Shown here: piece by piece, positions 15,852 to 46,628 of the stretch | Layout of the letters: each line of letters begins with the position of its first letter | Numbering within the stretch: position 1 is the first letter of the stretch | Assembly: GCA_947623685.1 (NCBI GenBank) | Contig: CANQHF010000001.1 | Span: forward strand, 19,619-83,618 | Source: an uncultured Bacilli bacterium | GTDB lineage: Bacteria; Bacillota_I; Bacilli_A; RF39; UBA660 | Length of the DNA stretch: 64,000 nt | Direction: 5' to 3' | Notes under the pieces: model-generated | Seen by the model: only the letters and a program-made list of their open reading frames with translations | What the model was told of the DNA's origin: nothing | The model's database searches: none | Program-made: the position numbers and the translations under genes

Positions 15852-16514
15852 CTATGAATCAGTTGTACTATACGTCAATGTTATATCTCCAAATGATACG
15901 TCGAAGTCGCCGTCTGCAAGTGGAGGATTATCAAGGTGACGTGCATAAGCCGTCCATACATAAATTTTTTCTGATGCTCCTTTTGCTAATGGATGATTAG
16001 TTACAGTTTTCGTGCTTCCTACACTATATAAAGGATTATTACTTGTTACATCATCACCTAAACTTATGGTTAATGCTATCTTTTTACAAACTTCATCTAC
16101 TAAAGTTTGTGATGTGCCTTGTTTTGCAGTACATGTTTTTTTACCAAACTCAATTTTCTTTAAATATGCTACGTAACTTCCTTCATTTCTTACGTAAAAT
16201 GTATATGAAGCAGAAGAATCTGGCTTTTTAAACGTTACTTTTATTCCAGTTATTTGTGGATGTAATGGATCAGTATTATTTATCGTTGCGGGTGTTGCAG
16301 TAGCATTAAGACTTCCTGGCGTAATAGTATTAGTTTGAAGGCTATCTTTTGAACTTGAAAACAAAACTTTAAAGTTTGATGGATCTGGGGTTACCGTTGC
16401 TCCTTGTTTTATTATTAGGTTATTAGAAAATACTGAAAATCCTATTGATAAGCTTACTACCACTGCAAGTAAACATAGTATTATTATAACTTTGTTATTA
16501 TTTCTCTTGTGCAT
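15852..16514 (-). CDS. Secreted protein, phase-variable paralog family (dispersed copy)
   Basis: 220 aa. N-terminus K-rich + hydrophobic + SIGFSVFSNNL...TVTPDPSNFKVLFSSS, and C-terminus DGDFDVSFGDITLTYSTTDS, both shared with 40722-43079. Preceded by the poly-G promoter module. Confidence 0.75.
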   Translation of the reverse strand: MHKRNNNKVIIILCLLAVVVSLSIGFSVFSNNLIIKQGATVTPDPSNFKVLFSSSKDSLQTNTITPGSLNATATPATINNTDPLHPQITGIKVTFKKPDSSASYTFYVRNEGSYVAYLKKIEFGKKTCTAKQGTSQTLVDEVCKKIALTISLGDDVTSNNPLYSVGSTKTVTNHPLAKGASEKIYVWTAYARHLDNPPLADGDFDVSFGDITLTYSTTDS

Positions 16515-16539: not shown

Positions 16540-16596
16540 TGTTTATAATATCATATACCCCCCCCCGGTCAAGTTTTTGAAACAATTGTGGAAAAC
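16540..16596 (-). promoter_or_regulatory. Family promoter module with G9 tract in the -35/-10 spacer
   Basis: Minus strand reads GTTTTCCACAATTGTTTCAAAAAC-TTGACC-G9-TATATGA-TATTATAAAC; C tract at 16558-16566. Confidence 0.6.
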
Positions 16597-17123
16597 TATT
16601 TTTTCTTATCTATAAATGTTTTTGTACAATCAAATAAAAATAGAAAGCTTAACAAAATCGTTACCCAAATAGGTATTTTTTTAATTAATCCTTCTAATAA
16701 AGGATTGACCACATAAATAAAAATAACACTTACAACTCCCCATACCAAAGTCATTTCTAAAGATATGTAATGACCTATGTGAAACTTTTGTGATGAATAA
16801 TCCCAAAATACTTCACCAAATATCTTTTCAATTAATACACCACCTAAAGCTTCTAATGTAGATAATACTATTGAAACAACAAAAAACATTATAATTGTTT
16901 CCAAAAATCTATGCATATGCAAATTTTTAAATAAATATTTTGACACAAATAAAATCGTTACGGCACCTATTCCATAAACCGGTGTCCACCAACCATATAA
17001 AAAGCCACTTTTAAAACCATTTTTAGTTATTAAAGCGGTTATTGTTTCTAATAAATGGCCAATTATTGAATATATAAAAAAACAATTTACATAATACATA
17101 ACATCACCATAAATATTATGCAT
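16596..17123 (-). CDS. hypothetical polytopic membrane protein
   Basis: 175 aa with 4-5 predicted TM helices, no confident family; the start may be an internal Met. Confidence 0.35.
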   Translation of the reverse strand: MHNIYGDVMYYVNCFFIYSIIGHLLETITALITKNGFKSGFLYGWWTPVYGIGAVTILFVSKYLFKNLHMHRFLETIIMFFVVSIVLSTLEALGGVLIEKIFGEVFWDYSSQKFHIGHYISLEMTLVWGVVSVIFIYVVNPLLEGLIKKIPIWVTILLSFLFLFDCTKTFIDKKK

Positions 17124-20900: not shown

Positions 20901-21033
20901 AAGTAACCCCTTTCTTTAATATCCTATGTTTGTTATGGTATTAATATTTGAATTTGATACAAAAAAATATATAACTTTAATAAAAATATTTATTAAAACA
21001 ACCAAATAAAAAGAATCACAAATTTGTGATTTT

Positions 21034-22683
21034 TTAATCTATTTTATAAGGATTATTAATAGATCCATCTCCATATGTATAAGTTACATCATTTTTTAAT
21101 GATACACTTGGGTTAACACTAGCAGTTTCTTTTAGACGTTTAGAGTCAAATTTACCATTATTAATAACATATCTATAGAACTCATTATTGATATTTTCTT
21201 CAGCAAGTTTCATAGTAAATAACCACATTGGATTACCAGACGTATAAGGTAAATACGATGATGTTGGAGACAAATTAGCACTTATTCCTGCAAGCATCGC
21301 CTCATCTGATGTTAATAATGCTACCGGGTAAGTAATTTTTAGTGTTACTAAATCTGAATTCCACTCGCCGGCAAGACTATACATGGTAATAGGAGCAGTG
21401 CCATATCCTAAATATGGTTTACCATTACTAATCCTAGTATCAGCAGATTGTGAATCAGGATCATAAATAAATTCATTCCATATGGTATCTTCTAATTTAA
21501 GAGTGTATTTTGTCATATTTTGTGAATACCAATTATCTATATAGTTATGTATATCCAAAAAAGGTGTGGAAAAACCATTAAGCATTTCACCACCATAAAA
21601 ATTAGCATCCTCATCTTTATCATATTCAGTATTTCCAATACTTGATATGGCCGAGCATACTCCATTTACTGGTTTCCCACTATAAACTATTTTTATTCCG
21701 CCAGTATCAGTTGTTCTTACTATCTTCCAGCAAAAGTTTGCAAATAATACATTATTATTTAACGTGTTATCTCCCCTATAATAATATATTGGATATTTAT
21801 CACTACTTGTTGATGAAAATTTGTACTTTCCTTGTCCATTAGTACTAGATGATGGTTTTGTAAAATCTATTTTACTATCAGATGTTGCACCATCTTTTAT
21901 GGTAGCATAAAGACTTTTAGGTTTTAATCCCTCAATTACCAAATCACCAGTTACATTTTGGATGGTAAATTGACCATTTTGATATGTATATTGACTACTT
22001 GTTAATGCTTTACCACCTTGCGTTATATTAAATACCGTATAACCAGTACCTATATCTATATTTAATGTATCTTCATCTAATATCTCTGTTGGTAAATTTG
22101 TGAAGGATGCTGATGTTATATTTTTATAAGTTATCTTATGATATGTTCTAAAATCAAATCCTAGATTAAAAGTATAATCTTTTGTCGCTGTAGCAGCATT
22201 ATATTTACCATCTTTATATTTTATTACTATGTCAATTGTTCTTTTAGCGCCCATAGTACATTTTATAGTGCTTAAATTATCACATATTTTAGATTTTTCT
22301 GGAAAAATTGTTGCATATGTTAAATCAGCTGGTAAGACTTCTGCTATATATTTAAAAATGCCAACTTCTACATTTCCTATATTAGTTATTTCTACCTTAT
22401 ATGTTACGGTTGAGTTTGCATTTGGAAGTCTTACGCTTCCGCTTATGTTAGATACGTTATAATCTTCCCAGTTTGATATACCACCATTATTACCTTGTGC
22501 AGTAACATTTGTTACCCTAACATCTTTTTCTACTCTTACTACCGCTTTAATATCTTTCACGTTTAGTTTAGTATTAAATGCTGAATAACCCACGGATATT
22601 AGTAAAGTCATTATTACCATTACGCTTGCTATTATACTTGGCACTTGCAATCTTTTTTGTTTTTTCAACAGAATCATCTCCAC
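21034..22683 (-). CDS. Large secreted protein sharing the family signal peptide and promoter module
   Basis: 549 aa with N-terminus ...LLISVGYSAFNTKLNVK (TasA/SipW-cognate-like) and a Thr/Asn/Gly-rich beta-type ectodomain. The ORF track starts at GTG 22683; in-frame ATG 22677 or TTG 22668 may be the real start. Poly-G promoter module upstream. Confidence 0.7.
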   Translation of the reverse strand: MEMILLKKQKRLQVPSIIASVMVIMTLLISVGYSAFNTKLNVKDIKAVVRVEKDVRVTNVTAQGNNGGISNWEDYNVSNISGSVRLPNANSTVTYKVEITNIGNVEVGIFKYIAEVLPADLTYATIFPEKSKICDNLSTIKCTMGAKRTIDIVIKYKDGKYNAATATKDYTFNLGFDFRTYHKITYKNITSASFTNLPTEILDEDTLNIDIGTGYTVFNITQGGKALTSSQYTYQNGQFTIQNVTGDLVIEGLKPKSLYATIKDGATSDSKIDFTKPSSSTNGQGKYKFSSTSSDKYPIYYYRGDNTLNNNVLFANFCWKIVRTTDTGGIKIVYSGKPVNGVCSAISSIGNTEYDKDEDANFYGGEMLNGFSTPFLDIHNYIDNWYSQNMTKYTLKLEDTIWNEFIYDPDSQSADTRISNGKPYLGYGTAPITMYSLAGEWNSDLVTLKITYPVALLTSDEAMLAGISANLSPTSSYLPYTSGNPMWLFTMKLAEENINNEFYRYVINNGKFDSKRLKETASVNPSVSLKNDVTYTYGDGSINNPYKID

Positions 22684-22699
22684 AATTTTTCAATTTCCT

Positions 22700-22760
22700 A
22701 TGTTAATAATATCACTAACCCCCCCCCGGTCAAGTTTTTTAAAAAATTGTGGAAAACAAA
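22700..22760 (-). promoter_or_regulatory. Family promoter module with G9 tract (C tract 22719-22727)
   Basis: Minus strand reads ...TTGACC-G9-TTAGTGA-TATTATTAAC; the upstream block is slightly diverged (TTTTTTAAAAAA). Confidence 0.55.
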
Positions 22761-22805
22761 TGAAAAGTTGTTTACATATATTTTTTATTATTGTATAATT
22801 TATTT

Positions 22806-22897
22806 AGTGAGAGCAACCTACTAGGTTAGTTTGCTTTCCAAAAAGATTTGGAAAGATACACTTACCCATTTGGGTAAGTGTATCTTTTATTTTTTAC
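22806..22897 (+). ncRNA. Candidate small RNA (possible type I antitoxin)
   Basis: Plus-strand promoter TTTACA(22771-22776)-17 nt-TATAAT(22794-22799). No ORF follows. The transcript ends in a 13-bp perfect hairpin (22855-22884) plus a T-rich tract. It is convergent with a small hydrophobic peptide ORF. Confidence 0.3.
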
Positions 22898-22973
22898 ATA
22901 TTAGTAATACCAAGACGCAAAAAAGTAAAATGATTATTACTTTAAGAAATATTATTTCTTTTTTCATAAGCAT
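22887..22973 (-). CDS. Small hydrophobic peptide (28 aa), candidate type I toxin
   Basis: Reads MLMKKEIIFLKVIIILLFCVLVLLICKK with an AAGAGGGGTGGTG RBS. Below the 60-aa ORF-track cutoff; single TM helix with a lysine-rich C-terminus. Confidence 0.3.
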   Translation of the reverse strand: MLMKKEIIFLKVIIILLFCVLVLLICKK

Positions 22974-23080
22974 CACCACCCCTCTTTTTAAAGGAAAAGT
23001 GGAAAGATAAACCAACCCAATATAAGTTGCCCTCATATTAATATTTAGCCATAACTTTTAAAATCCCCCTAAGTTTTTGA

Positions 23081-23260
23081 AAAAAAATTAAAAAAATATG
23101 CTTTTTTTCTCATTGTTTTAATTTATTATTTATGAATCAGTTGTACTATACGTTAAAGTTATATCGCCAAACATAACATCATCTTTCTTTTATTTACTAT
23201 GTTTATAATATCCCCATACCGGTAGTTTTTTGAAAAATTGTAGAAAACAAAAAACCATAT
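23081..23260 (-). pseudogene. Deletion remnant of a family gene (3' end fused to 5' UTR + degenerate promoter module)
   Basis: 23131-23172 equals the last ~41 nt of the family ORF (..ITLTYSTTDS*), joined directly at a 7-nt microhomology (GATGTTA) to family 5'UTR sequence. The promoter module is degenerate (CCCCATACC; GGTAG for GGTCAAG). The family 3' flank is conserved at 23081-23130. Confidence 0.6.
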
Positions 23261-40721: not shown

Positions 40722-41417
40722 TTATGAATCAGTTGTACTATACGTTAATGTTATATCGCCAAACGTAACATCAAAGTCTCCGTCAGCGAATACATTATTA
40801 TTATTATTTTTATAAAAAATAGAAATAATAATATATTTAAAAGTTTCTTTTTCTAAAGGATGTTCTGTTATATTATCTCGTGTAGTTTTTAAACCTTCTA
40901 TATTCCACGCACTAAGGGAAACGTCATTACCATCATAATGTATTTCAATTATTATACCTTCACAGACTTTATCTACTAAATCTTGTGATGTACCTTCTTT
41001 GGCAATACATTTTTTATCTCCAAATTCTATTTTCTTTAAATATGCTGTATACTTTCCTTGGTTTGTAACATAAAACCCCCAATTAACAAGATCATCTGGA
41101 TTTGTAAGCGTTGCTTTTAATCCAGTTATTTTTGGATGCAATGAATCACTATTATCTATTGTTGCAGGAAATCCCAATGCAGTACCTTTAATAACACGAT
41201 AATTAAGATCTCCAGCTACCACACTATCTTTTGAACTTGAAAACAAAATCTTAAAGTCTGATGGATCTGGTGTTACTGTTGCAGTTGAATTAATATCTAG
41301 ATTTTTAGAAAATGCTGAAAATCCTATTGATAAGCCTATTACTCCAATCATAAGTACCATGATTATTATTATTTTAGAGTTTTTATTATATCTTTTTCTT
41401 GTTCTTTTACTATTCAT
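40722..41417 (-). CDS. Secreted protein, phase-variable paralog family (array member 3)
   Basis: 231 aa with N-terminus MNSKRTRKRYNKNSKIIIIMVLMIGVIGLSIGFSAFSKNLDINSTATVTPDPSDFKILFSSS, conserved central KYTAYLKKIEFGDKKCIAKEGTSQDLVDKVCEGI, and C-terminus DGDFDVTFGDITLTYSTTDS. Confidence 0.8.
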   Translation of the reverse strand: MNSKRTRKRYNKNSKIIIIMVLMIGVIGLSIGFSAFSKNLDINSTATVTPDPSDFKILFSSSKDSVVAGDLNYRVIKGTALGFPATIDNSDSLHPKITGLKATLTNPDDLVNWGFYVTNQGKYTAYLKKIEFGDKKCIAKEGTSQDLVDKVCEGIIIEIHYDGNDVSLSAWNIEGLKTTRDNITEHPLEKETFKYIIISIFYKNNNNNVFADGDFDVTFGDITLTYSTTDS

Positions 41418-41439: not shown

Positions 41440-41500
41440 TACTATGTTTATAATATCACTTACCCCCCCCCGGTCAAGTTTTTGAAACAATTGTGGAAAA
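41440..41500 (-). promoter_or_regulatory. Family promoter module with G9 tract (C tract 41463-41471)
   Basis: Minus strand reads GTTTTCCACAATTGTTTCAAAAAC-TTGACC-G9-TAAGTGA-TATTATAAAC...AAGGTGGGAAAAAATG. Confidence 0.6.
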
Positions 41501-41600
41501 CAAATTATAGATTTGTAAAATAATTTAACTTAGTAATTGCAAAATAAATTATTCAAAAAATATGCTTTCTTTTGCATATTCCATTGTTTTAATTTATTAT

Positions 41601-42269
41601 TTACGAATCAGTTGTACTATATGTCAAAGTCAAATCACCAAACTCTACATCAAAGTCGCCGTCTGCAAGTGTCGCTTTAGAAGAGTAGTCAATCTGAATA
41701 GCAACATGTTTAAAAGTCCCTTTTTCTAAAGGATGATCTGTTATATTATCTTTTGTAGTAGTTAAACCAAGTATATTCCAACTACCAGCGTCATCATCAT
41801 AATATATTCGAAGTTCTATACCTTCACAAGCTTTATTAACTAGGTCTTGTGATGTTCCGTCTTTTGCAGTACATTTTTTCTCTCCAAACTCTATTTTCTT
41901 TAAATATGCTGTGTATTTCCCTTGGTTTGTAACATAAAACCACCATTCAGCAGCTTTACCTGAACCAGTAAACGTTGCTTTTAAATTACTAATAGTCGGG
42001 TGTGCCGGATCACTATTATTTATTGTTGCAGCTGTTCCTTGCACATATAATGGGTTAATAGGATTAGTTTCAACTGTCGTGTTTGAACTTGAAAATAATA
42101 CCTTAAAGTCTGATGGATCTGGTGTTACTGTTGCAGTTGAATTAATATCTAGATTTTTAGAAAATGCTGCAAAACCAATTGATAAGCCTATTACTCCAAT
42201 AGTAAGTACAATGATTATTATTATTTTAGAGTTTTTATTATATCTTTTTCTTGTTCTTTTACTATTCAT
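41601..42269 (-). CDS. Secreted protein, phase-variable paralog family (array member 2)
   Basis: 222 aa with the same N-terminal 60 aa and C-terminal DGDFDVEFGDLTLTYSTTDS; the central region is divergent. Confidence 0.8.
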   Translation of the reverse strand: MNSKRTRKRYNKNSKIIIIIVLTIGVIGLSIGFAAFSKNLDINSTATVTPDPSDFKVLFSSSNTTVETNPINPLYVQGTAATINNSDPAHPTISNLKATFTGSGKAAEWWFYVTNQGKYTAYLKKIEFGEKKCTAKDGTSQDLVNKACEGIELRIYYDDDAGSWNILGLTTTKDNITDHPLEKGTFKHVAIQIDYSSKATLADGDFDVEFGDLTLTYSTTDS

Positions 42270-42284
42270 TTTTCCACCTTGTTT

Positions 42285-42350
42285 TAATTCCTATGTTTAT
42301 AATATCACTAACCCCCCCGGTCAAGTTTTTTCAAAAATGGGTGGAAAACA
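42285..42350 (-). promoter_or_regulatory. Family promoter module with G7 tract (C tract 42312-42318) and diverged upstream block
   Basis: Minus strand reads ...CACCCATTTTTGAAAAAAC-TTGACC-G7-TTAGTGA-TATTATAAAC. Spacer is 2 nt shorter than in the other copies. Confidence 0.6.
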
Positions 42351-42401
42351 AATTGAAAAAAATATGTTTTTTTTGTATGTTTTATTACTTTAATTTATTA
42401 T

Positions 42402-43079
42402 TTACGAATCAGTTGTACTATACGTTAAGGTTATATCTCCAAACTCTACATCAAAGTCTCCATCTGTAACAGGAGCATTAGCATTATAAATACCAATAGC
42501 AATCCGTTTAAAAGTGCCTTTTTCTAAAGGATGATTTGTTATATTTTCTTTTGTAGTAGTTAAATTAGGTATATCCCAACTACCAGTGCTACGATCATAA
42601 TATATTTGAAGGTTCATATATTCACAAGCTTTATCAACTAAAGCTTGTGATGTTCCTTCTTTGGCAATGCATTTTTTAGTTCCAAAATCTATTTTCTTTA
42701 AATATGCTGTATATTTTCCTTGATTGGTTACAAAAAATTCCCATTCAACCATTTGGTTTGATTTAGTAAACGTTGCCTTTATGCCTGTTATTTTTGGATG
42801 CAATGGATCTTTATTATCTATTGTTGCAGTAGTTCCTGTCGCATTAGCACTTTTAAGACTAACACCAATAGGATTAGTTGCAACAGTTGTTTCTGAACTT
42901 GAAAACAAAATTTTAAAGTCTGATGGATCTGGTGTTACTGTTGCAGTAGAATTAATATCTAAATTTTTAGAAAATGCTGAAAATCCTATTGATAATCCTA
43001 TTACTCCAAATGTAAGTACCATGATTATTATTATTTTAGTGTTTTTATTATATCTTTTTCTTGTTCTTTTACTGTTCAT
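42402..43079 (-). CDS. Secreted protein, phase-variable paralog family (array member 1)
   Basis: 225 aa with the same N-terminal signal region and C-terminus DGDFDVEFGDITLTYSTTDS. Confidence 0.8.
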   Translation of the reverse strand: MNSKRTRKRYNKNTKIIIIMVLTFGVIGLSIGFSAFSKNLDINSTATVTPDPSDFKILFSSSETTVATNPIGVSLKSANATGTTATIDNKDPLHPKITGIKATFTKSNQMVEWEFFVTNQGKYTAYLKKIDFGTKKCIAKEGTSQALVDKACEYMNLQIYYDRSTGSWDIPNLTTTKENITNHPLEKGTFKRIAIGIYNANAPVTDGDFDVEFGDITLTYSTTDS

Positions 43080-43104
43080 TTTTTTCCACCTTGTTTTAAT
43101 TTCC

Positions 43105-43170
43105 TATGTTTATAATATCACTAACCCCCCCCCGGTCAAGTTTTTGAAACAATTGTGGAAAACAAATTAA
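43105..43170 (-). promoter_or_regulatory. Family promoter module with G9 tract (C tract 43125-43133)
   Basis: Minus strand reads GTTTTCCACAATTGTTTCAAAAAC-TTGACC-G9-TTAGTGA-TATTATAAAC. Confidence 0.6.
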
Positions 43171-45740: not shown

Positions 45741-46628
45741 CTATTCTACTTCGATGTCTAAAATTTCCAAAATACGATTTAGATCTTCTTTCGTTGCAAA
45801 CGAAATCTTTATTTTATTTCCAGAAATAGATACTTTAGTACCTAATTTATCAATTAACACTTTTTCTACATATTTATATTCATCTTTGTTTCTTTGTTTT
45901 TTTAATTGTACGCTTCTTTTATAACTACTAGATTCAGTAAGATGTTCTAAATCCCTTACACTTAATTTTTCATTAACAATTTTTTCTGCTAAAGTTTCTA
46001 TTTGATCATAACTTTCTAATTTACTCAAAATTCTTGCGTGTCCCATACTAATTTTATTATATAAAACCATATCTTGAACCGAGATAGGAAGTCTTAAAAG
46101 ACCTAGCATATTAGTAATATGACTCCTTGATTTACCAAGTTTTTTAGCAAGTTCATCTTGGGTTAATTTAAGTGATTCAATAATTGATTTATAAGCTTTA
46201 GCTTCTTCAATGGCCGATAGGTTTTCTCTTTGTAAGTTTTCAAGTAATGCTATTTGCATCATCTCGTCATCTGAAAAATCTCTTATGATTGCTGGAATCT
46301 TGTTAATTCCTGCGATCATACATGCTTTAACCCTTCTTTCACCAGCAATAATGTTATAACCTTTTATAGTCTTTTTAACGATTATTGGTTGAAACACGCC
46401 GTGTTCTTTAATTGAATTTGCTAATTCATTTAATGCATTCTCATCAAAAACCTTTCTTGGCTGATAAGGGTTACTCATAAGTTCATTTATTGGAAGTTCA
46501 ACAATCTCATCCTTTGGAGTTTGCTGTATTATTTTTTCTTCGACTTGGTCAAAATCAAGCACTTCAGAATTAAATAGTTGTTCTAAGCCCATTCCAAGAG
46601 CTCTTCTTTTACTCGTTTCTTCTTTCAT
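45741..46628 (-). CDS. parB: ParB/Spo0J chromosome partitioning protein
   Basis: ParB N-terminal motif (IIAGERRVKA), HTH, 295 aa; downstream of parA. Confidence 0.85.
   Translation of the reverse strand: MKEETSKRRALGMGLEQLFNSEVLDFDQVEEKIIQQTPKDEIVELPINELMSNPYQPRKVFDENALNELANSIKEHGVFQPIIVKKTIKGYNIIAGERRVKACMIAGINKIPAIIRDFSDDEMMQIALLENLQRENLSAIEEAKAYKSIIESLKLTQDELAKKLGKSRSHITNMLGLLRLPISVQDMVLYNKISMGHARILSKLESYDQIETLAEKIVNEKLSVRDLEHLTESSSYKRSVQLKKQRNKDEYKYVEKVLIDKLGTKVSISGNKIKISFATKEDLNRILEILDIEVE

Follow-up and report, generated by a model that had tools for sequence, protein, structure and literature searches.

A Candidate Slippage-Switched Poly-G Promoter Module in Front of a Large, Putatively Exported Protein of RF39-Like Bacilli

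The gene considered here encodes a protein of 549 aa and lies in a 64-kb stretch of DNA (hereafter, the window). Like four genes for small paralogous proteins of the same window, it is preceded by a ~90-nt module in which a run of G separates putative -35 and -10 elements. The explanation that we regard as on balance probable is that of a slippage-switched promoter driving an exported, adhesin-like member of a protein family of RF39-like Bacilli.

According to this explanation, uncultured, low-GC gut Bacilli of the RF39 type would possess a family of exported beta-sandwich proteins, of which the 549-aa gene encodes the large member, and this gene would be transcribed from its own family-typical promoter of the sigma-A type (TTGACC, a 16-nt spacer of which nine nucleotides are G, and TG-n-TATTAT). 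Slipped-strand gain or loss of G would alter the distance between the -35 and the -10, and the altered spacing would raise, lower or silence the transcription of each gene independently, so that cells would differ in the surface proteins that they make. Export would proceed via an N-terminal signal ending in [S/A]-x-G-[Y/F]-[S/A]-A-[F/L], probably cut by a dedicated signal peptidase of the SipW (archaeal) type. The 549-aa protein would most likely be an adhesin, in which the beta-sandwich of the family is joined to a lectin-like binding domain, and a possible role for it is that of minor or tip subunit in a donor-strand filament of the TasA/Tafi type, with a shaft built from the small paralogs.

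A Putative Promoter Module Shared by Five Genes

The preliminary description of this DNA had correctly identified the open reading frame, the signal motif and the C-terminal NPYKID, all on the minus strand, as well as the upstream series TTGACC-G9-TTAGTGA-TATTAT, which is present at 22733..22706 with its conserved block 5' of it. The gene and its surroundings comprise the following features.

21000..21031, minus strand: terminator-like hairpin AATCACA-AATT-TGTGATT with a T-run, directly 3' of the stop codon (read from the sequence)
21034..22683, minus strand: open reading frame of 549 aa (direct sequence reading)
22678..22681, minus strand: Shine-Dalgarno (SD) motif GGAG, 9 nt 5' of the TTG at 22668 (read from the sequence)
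22706..22714, minus strand: extended -10, TG-A-TATTAT, with the hexamer TATTAT at 22711-22706
22718-22712, minus strand: TTAGTGA between the G9 and the -10
22719..22727, minus strand: G9 homopolymer within the -35/-10 spacer (16 nt)
22728..22733, minus strand: -35 hexamer TTGACC (upstream alignment and consensus scan)
22734..22762, minus strand: conserved upstream block TTTGTTTTCCACAATT..AAAAAAC
22748-22756, minus strand: DnaA-box-like TTTTCCACA inside the conserved upstream block
23130..23255, minus strand: decayed module copy and 14-codon relic of a small paralog (MFGDITLTYSTTDS*), directly 5' of the 549-aa gene

The translated open reading frame begins with MEMILLKKQKRLQVPSIIASVMVIMTLLISVGYSAFNTKLNVKD... 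and ends in ...NPYKID. In the upstream alignment, its GGAG lines up with the GGTGG of the small paralogs. Of the two possible start codons, the GTG at 22683 fits this SD motif (22681-78) less well than the TTG at 22668; the large protein therefore probably starts at the TTG and would then measure 544 aa. At the other end, an AT-rich hairpin with a T-run follows the stop codon and the gene therefore looks monocistronic; a terminator scan made no call at this AT-rich hairpin (21000..21031). The consensus scan gives the promoter of the 549-aa gene a score of 10/12, with a spacer of 16 nt and a TG extended -10; the G9 between its -35 and -10 lies above the minimum of ~7 nt for promoter-spacer phase variation of the Vlp/PorA/Opc type. 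From these elements, we infer promoter activity.

The other four module copies of the window each precede a small paralog.

16545..16601, minus strand: G9 at 16558-16566, in front of the 220-aa paralog (15852..16514)
41450..41506, minus strand: G9 at 41463-41471, in front of the 231-aa paralog (40722..41417)
42299..42353, minus strand: G7 at 42312-42318 (spacer 14 nt), in front of the 222-aa paralog (41601..42269)
43112..43168, minus strand: G9 at 43125-43133, in front of the 225-aa paralog (42402..43079)

Alignment of the five regions reveals a common order, namely TTTGTTTTCCACAATT, AAAAACTTGACC, the G-run, TGATATTAT and AACATAGGAAAT. Runs of G8 or longer are found at four sites of the window (8 overlapping matches vs 0.18 expected by chance), and all G/C runs of at least 7 nt in the 64 kb (GC ~28%) fall inside the five modules. 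When the 549-aa gene is compared with the small genes, 27/30 nucleotides are identical 5' of the -35 and 46/51 from the -35 to about +15; the DNA on both sides of the module shows 57-61% identity, which corresponds to the background, and the likeness ends at the SD. The ~90-nt module is a discrete, sharply bounded island, about 90% identical among the five genes. It was not found in the viral contigs of IMG/VR, and an Rfam search of the whole window gave no match.

The Module in Related Genomes

An exact-pattern scan of species-representative genomes identified nine loci in eight MAGs, which come from chicken, human, rabbit, mouse and other samples. One of them is Candidatus Aphodocola, assigned by GTDB to the order RF39 (PMC8035907). 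A metagenome scan added 15 true module loci, including some from human-gut metagenomes; one more match (L023) was dropped as a GC-rich false positive. Across species, the TTWTCCACA box, the A-run, the -35, the G-run, the extended -10 and AACAT[AG] are kept, and such conservation requires either selection or ongoing gene conversion.

This bears on the idea that the module is a functionless leftover of a recent duplication, the large gene being a small paralog fused to a foreign C-terminal domain. The homology of the N-terminal domains (see below) and the small-paralog relics directly 5' of the 549-aa gene agree with such an origin. However, the proteins are ~19% identical and their coding DNA is at background, yet the ~90-nt module is about 90% identical; moreover, the module has been kept between species sampled from chicken, human, rabbit and mouse. 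That the module is a functionless leftover of this kind is, in our view, very improbable.

Elsewhere, the genes found 3' of the module are mostly members of the family, both small and large. Large homologs with a module are those of L034/P0003, of the ends of L033 and L030, and of L015, where the module fronts an 805-aa LRR protein belonging to the family. The module also precedes an LRR protein with a C-terminal anchor, a protein with a Sec signal, and small cytoplasmic or membrane proteins. Finally, in relatives it stands directly before three sigma-70-family proteins of 615-742 aa, which carry sigma-70 regions 1.2, 2, 3 and 4. The genes 5' of these encode enolase (L002), DnaJ (L005) and an HD-domain protein (L008); in no case is the preceding gene dnaG.

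The latter arrangement raises the possibility that the unusually long sigma-70-family protein recognizes the module as its cognate promoter, within an autoregulated regulon of which the G-tract of the sigma gene would be the master switch. The adjacency itself, the position of the three genes away from dnaG and the conservation of the module past the two hexamers point in this direction. It should, however, be noted that the hexamers are of the canonical sigma-A type, so that no special sigma factor is needed, and that the window contains no such sigma gene. A cognate sigma factor of this kind appears decidedly unlikely; it is compatible with the slippage-switched promoter, not exclusive of it.

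The promoter is a lineage-wide unit serving different genes. The module had been proposed to act as a portable cassette for expression and secretion. As far as the promoter is concerned, this proposal is borne out, since non-homologous genes are fronted in related genomes; it fails for the signal peptide, since DNA similarity stops at the SD. The signal peptide is outside the DNA cassette, and the shared signal reflects an old common ancestry of the whole N-terminal domain. As to the 'coordinated' regulon also envisaged, nothing indicates it, since every gene has its own tract.

Length of the G-Tract

Being a simple sequence repeat, a run of nine G is intrinsically prone to slippage. By analogy with porA, expression from the module would be high with a spacing of 17 nt, intermediate with 16 nt and low with 15 nt or less. 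The length of the porA poly-G or opc poly-C tract reportedly sets the spacer and, with it, the level of expression.

Among module copies, -35/-10 spacers span 14 to 17 nt. In the window, tract lengths differ between paralogs, with G7 and a 14-nt spacer at the 222-aa paralog and G9 at the other modules. Across species, the G-run ranges from 8 to 10, adjacent bases compensating. Length polymorphism at one orthologous promoter was seen in the human-gut relative only, where L019 (G8), L004 (G9) and L022 (G10) otherwise share identical DNA over ~160 nt on the 5' side and ~100 nt on the 3' side; these are short metagenome contigs, in which homopolymer assembly errors are possible. Many modules sit at contig ends, which can likewise be counted in favor of variation.

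The tract of the 549-aa gene is G9 in 4/4 assemblies recovered, including the window, L001 and L029, and shows no length difference; likewise, the other modules of the window have the same tract lengths in L011 and L012. This same-species comparison is one of consensus assemblies (about 8x coverage) rather than reads, in which minority lengths would not show. Clade-wide, 17/18 module copies have G9, and a subclass of the same clade combines G9 with one extra C, giving a 17-nt spacer. Such uniformity exceeds that of most contingency loci and deserves attention. Because the 549-aa tract is always G9, as are 17/18 copies of the clade, we can only infer that the 549-aa gene is phase variable. Its earlier portrayal as 'stochastically switching' is favored by the variation of the tract in the human-gut relative and by the G7 paralog of the window, and disfavored by the constant G9 of its own tract. 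In addition, a promoter with an extended -10 may be less dependent on spacing.

The module could instead be a fixed, conserved promoter or operator, in which the G-run would be a selected structural or protein-binding element and not a switch, regulation being of a classical kind, for instance through a factor recognizing the TTWTCCACA box. Besides the prevalence of G9 in the clade and its constancy in the assemblies of the 549-aa locus, this would account for the retention of G9 even where an extra C makes a 17-nt spacer, for the fixed distance of the TTWTCCACA box across species, and for the presence of the module before sigma-70-family genes, where ON/OFF control seems risky. It is at odds with the G8, G9 and G10 of the contigs L019, L004 and L022, which do not differ elsewhere in the DNA compared, with the G7 paralog, with the range of 8 to 10 across species and with the slippage-prone nature of G9; furthermore, we know of no other role for a run of G placed in a promoter spacer. 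A fixed element of this type thus seems unlikely, though it deserves to be kept in mind, and the slippage-switched promoter is the reading that we retain. Among the papers searched, none was found to connect phase variation with RF39 or with these proteins.

The N-Terminal Domain and the Small-Paralog Family

The AF2 monomer model of the 549-aa protein (pLDDT 78.9) consists of a helix and three domains.

Residues 14-41: hydrophobic helix ending in S-V-G-Y-S-A-F (AlphaFold model and sequence)
Conserved post-signal segment: YSAFNTKLNVKDIKAVV / FSAFSKNLDINSTATV
Residues ~55-187: beta-sandwich homologous to the small paralogs (AlphaFold model)
Residues ~188-253: small beta domain (AlphaFold model)
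Residues ~255-549: C-terminal domain, probably DUF6273-like (AlphaFold model and homologs)

A beta-sandwich, which the preliminary description had envisaged as an outcome of structural prediction, is thus found in the model at residues 55-187. Comparison of the small family (A3) with the large one (A4) by hhalign gives a Prob of 96% and an E-value of 4.3e-9 over 139 columns; the alignment covers residues 10-165 in the small paralogs and 10-160 in the large protein. The small and large families are joined by an intermediate group (P0097, P0117, P0052, P0057; hhalign, 98.2% and 97.5%); in hmmsearch, the HMM of this group matches residues 7-178 of the 549-aa protein with an E-value of 7.8e-11 and a small paralog with an E-value of 2e-10. 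Identity between the small paralogs and the large protein in the shared domain is only about 19%. The N-terminal similarity, as seen by hhalign and hmmsearch over the beta-sandwich, goes far beyond generic signal-peptide composition. The statement that the body of the large protein is unrelated to the small paralogs has to be restricted to the C-terminal ~300 residues, which are extra, the first ~170 residues being homologous.

The profile of the small family comprises 2,933 cluster representatives, and the motif [S/A]-x-G-[Y/F]-[S/A]-A-[F/L]-x-x-x-L-x-[I/V] is kept throughout the family. In many representatives, the domain occupies residues 1-215 and is followed by unrelated extensions, such as BspA-type LRRs. 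Because so many representatives bear varied C-terminal extensions, the architecture of 'family N-domain plus cargo' is widespread, with the 549-aa protein as one instance. There are 1,021 detectable homologs of this protein, the nearest of which (P0002 to P0005) have the first ~60 residues identical and a divergent C-terminal half. P0002, P0004 and the 220-aa paralog were not located on contigs. Searches of Pfam and NCBIfam with all five proteins of the window returned nothing significant, PDB sequence profile searches gave no match, and Foldseek comparison of both predicted monomer models with the PDB gave no match below 1e-3.

The C-Terminal Domain

The C-terminal domain is probably DUF6273-like and lectin-like, as the model and the homologs suggest. 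The 549-aa protein itself stays below the Pfam gathering score of DUF6273 (PF19789), to which it has no match; the homologs P0029, P0077 and P0085 reach 26-30 bits (cutoff 23.5), at profile positions ~125-171 only. The domain shares with DUF6273 the terminal motif GVRPxxSLK...GDGSxxxPY, whereas the Pfam match of the homologs is confined to the last ~45 profile positions and the protein of the window is sub-threshold. When the BFVD viral models were searched with Foldseek, DUF6273 proteins were matched with a prob of 0.99-1.0, a TM of up to 0.55 of the target and an E-value of about 3e-3. DUF6273 of phage receptor-binding proteins and DGR targets was described as C-type-lectin-like (PMC10743442), and DUF6273 is the N-terminal domain of the gut IgA protease ThomasA (PMC12402451). 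In other bacteria, the C-terminal domain is attached to pilin N_methyl, camelysin or VWA N-termini. We read it here as a putative ligand-binding head, and adhesion would be its function.

Gene Context in Relatives

The gene order in L035/L036 (P0007) is small paralog, archaeal-type signal peptidase I protein, DUF5305 and large homolog; L033 (P0006) has the same operon order with two small paralogs. In both cases, the peptidase protein measures 375-376 aa, has SipW as its best named relative, carries a polytopic N-terminal extension of ~245 aa, and matches TIGR02228 with its C-terminus (80 bits vs a cutoff of 51.85). In L033, the operon is followed by an IS1595 transposase gene and then by a module and gene start of the 549 type, and the intergenic ~400 nt ahead of this gene are 94% identical to positions 23086-22686 of the window. 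L030 contains two intact small paralogs at the site where the window has the decayed module and the relic. The 549-type gene therefore adjoins the SipW/DUF5305 operon in L033 and small paralogs in L030. L031 has ten small paralogs in tandem. Genes for a SipW-type peptidase and DUF5305 are absent from the 64-kb window.

The archaeal Tafi donor-strand pili are formed with a signal peptidase, DUF5305 and subunits of ~150-200 aa; in structure, the Tafi pilins are relatives of bacterial TasA, and the way in which Tafi pili assemble is similar to that of TasA fibres (PMC11821415, PMC12337348). By analogy, the context in relatives suggests a TasA/Tafi-like gene set, in which the large protein would have the role of a tip adhesin on a pilus. 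As in the TapA-SipW-TasA system of Bacillus subtilis and in Tafi, the relatives encode subunits beside a signal peptidase and DUF5305 (TafD, TafG), and the subunits are ~200-aa beta-sandwich proteins with a conserved segment just after the signal. Unlike in TasA and Tafi, the present system is known from genes alone, there is no detectable sequence relation, the fold match is weak, and the peptidase has its polytopic extension.

The motif GYSAFN resembles the GTWAAFND of TasA. A homology with the TasA/camelysin family (PF12389; TIGR04088) was considered and dropped: hhalign against camelysin-type N-termini gave a Prob of about 1%, and this family produced no Pfam, NCBIfam or PDB-sequence match. 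In fold, the similarity to the TasA fibre 8aur_A is weak (E 0.049, prob 0.60, rank 40), and matches to archaeal type IV pilins (8q30, 8fk7) were dropped as not significant. Because the sequence and fold tests with TasA failed or gave weak results, the filament model is drawn from context and architecture only, and TasA is kept as a functional analogy, not as a homolog. To our knowledge, phase-variable promoters have not been reported for TasA or Tafi.

Taken together, these elements can be combined into one tentative picture, which we regard as possible but not probable: the small paralogs would form the shaft and the 549-aa protein the tip adhesin of a bacterial counterpart of TasA/Tafi pili, processed by a fused polytopic SipW-type peptidase and a DUF5305 partner, and every subunit gene would be switched by a poly-G promoter of its own. 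If this were true, filament composition and binding specificity would differ from cell to cell, and the sigma-70-family gene under a poly-G module in sister species would add a stochastic master layer.

Relation to Known Phase-Variable Systems and Significance

In Mycoplasma hyorhinis, changes of a poly-A tract in the vlp promoters, and in M. mycoides changes of a TA repeat in the promoter spacer of vmm, turn expression ON or OFF (PMC10502178). The present case resembles Vlp and Vmm in that a family of surface-protein genes, each with its own transcript, has a conserved 5' region with a repeat tract in the promoter, and in that the hosts are genome-reduced relatives within the Bacilli. It differs by its tract, which is poly-G instead of poly-A (vlp) or TA (vmm) and is known from sequence alone, and by its products: Vlps are lipoproteins with repetitive C-termini, whereas those considered here are beta-sandwich proteins with a SipW-like motif, one of them with a large, putatively lectin-like domain.

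With porA and opc of Neisseria meningitidis, the module shares a G/C homopolymer between the -35 and the -10, which in Neisseria acts as a volume control. PorA and opc are, however, single genes of a Gram-negative pathogen, with no module common to a gene family or to several species. The class of mechanism is therefore already known from vlp, vmm, porA and opc. What is new here is the RF39-like lineage, the protein family and the conservation of the whole module across species, to which a coupling of the module to a SipW/DUF5305 filament system and a sigma gene can possibly be added.

The formula TTWTCCACA-N12-AAAAACTTGACC-Gn-TGATATTAT provides a handle with which this gene set can be found in any MAG, and it also permits switching to be measured straight from metagenomic reads. 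Animal guts commonly harbor RF39-like Bacilli, which have small genomes and have never been cultured, and the encounter of these bacteria with the host is nearly unstudied. A conserved, slippage-prone promoter before a large family of exported proteins would be their first candidate system of surface variation. Gut phages and an IgA protease make use of a lectin-like domain such as that predicted in the 549-aa protein, and the SipW/DUF5305 link could bring filaments of the TasA/Tafi type to the RF39-like lineage.

Conserved Box and Downstream Genes of the Promoter Module

In all copies of the poly-G promoter module, a conserved box of sequence TTTTCCACA or TTATCCACA is located ~12 nt upstream of AAAAACTTGACC. 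The TTATCCACA form corresponds to the DnaA-box consensus. Nine box matches are observed in the window, against 2.3 expected, and four of these nine lie inside modules. Example copies are found at:

window 22748-22756
window 16587-16595
window 41492-41500
window 43154-43162
also in L004, L005, and L010, three loci from other assemblies

In three other species, the module stands immediately 5' of a gene of the sigma-70 family (615-742 aa), whose product contains regions 1.2, 2, 3, and 4 followed by a long C-terminal extension:

L002:4349-6489, sigma-70-family gene
L005:3075-4985 (-), sigma-70-family gene
L008:3357-5643 (-), sigma-70-family gene, module spacer of 14 nt

In none of the three is this gene directly preceded by dnaG.

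Gene Clusters in Relatives and in the Window

Homologs of the 549-aa protein and small paralogs also occur in clusters:

L033:2753-6599 and L035:672-4965, three-gene operon with small paralogs upstream
L031:7724-15682, ten small paralogs of 213-232 aa arranged in tandem in one relative, an array containing seven G9 promoter modules

The operon of L033 and L035 encodes, in this order, a 375-aa polytopic protein with a C-terminal archaeal/SipW-type signal peptidase I domain, a DUF5305 protein, and a large protein homologous to the 549-aa one. In the window, the three-paralog cluster is adjoined by ParB, DUF951, and YchF-type genes (45741-46628 and surroundings). GC skew is uniformly negative across the window, and this region is probably near the replication origin.

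Relics and a Divergent Promoter Beside the 549-aa Gene

The region upstream of the 549-aa gene contains the following elements:

23130-23255 (-), decayed module copy, with TTGACC and G-run broken, and small-paralog remnant
~23040-23090 (-), possible second module, CAAAAACTTA-GGGGG-ATTTTAAAAG, further decayed
22887-22973 (-), hydrophobic 28-codon ORF (MLMKKEIIFLKVIIILLFCVLVLLICKK) with a good SD, downstream of the possible second module
within 22771-22888 (+), divergent near-consensus promoter TTTACA-17-TATAAT (11/12), directed away from the 549-aa gene
22851-22888 (+), strong terminator hairpin, ~50 nt beyond the divergent promoter

In the first element, an ATG is joined in frame to the final 13 small-paralog codons (MFGDITLTYSTTDS, then stop); it is a relic left by deletion, and the relative L030 has two intact small paralogs at the matching position. 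The stretch holding the possible second module and the 28-codon ORF is 94% conserved in L033. The segment 22771-22888 (+) could produce a small transcript of ~80 nt with two extra hairpins, for which Rfam gave no match.

Sequence Variation Among Copies

Many contigs stop inside a module or at most ~250 nt from one (L003, L004, L010, L017, L018, L020, L022, L025, L029, L030, L033, and L034), consistent with assembly breaks at a repeated, possibly length-heterogeneous element. The 225-aa paralog has an A-run between its SD (GGTGG) and its ATG (43080-43090 (-)) that differs by 2 nt from that of two other assemblies, L011 and L012 (AAAAAA versus AAAA); neither the protein nor the G9 tract differs. 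This A-run is a second length-variable homopolymer, located within the translation-initiation region. At the 549-aa locus, the 10-nt segment that separates the box from the -35 element (22734-22747 (-)) exists in three versions, ttttttaaaaaa, ttgtttcaaaaa, and tttttgaaaaaa, when the window is compared with L001 and L029, two further assemblies that cover this locus. Each version has a match in some other module copy. The four amino-acid differences in P0332, a homolog of the 549-aa protein, are clustered (residues 114-127) and agree with the paralog P0002. Taken together, these sequence matches suggest gene conversion among the copies.
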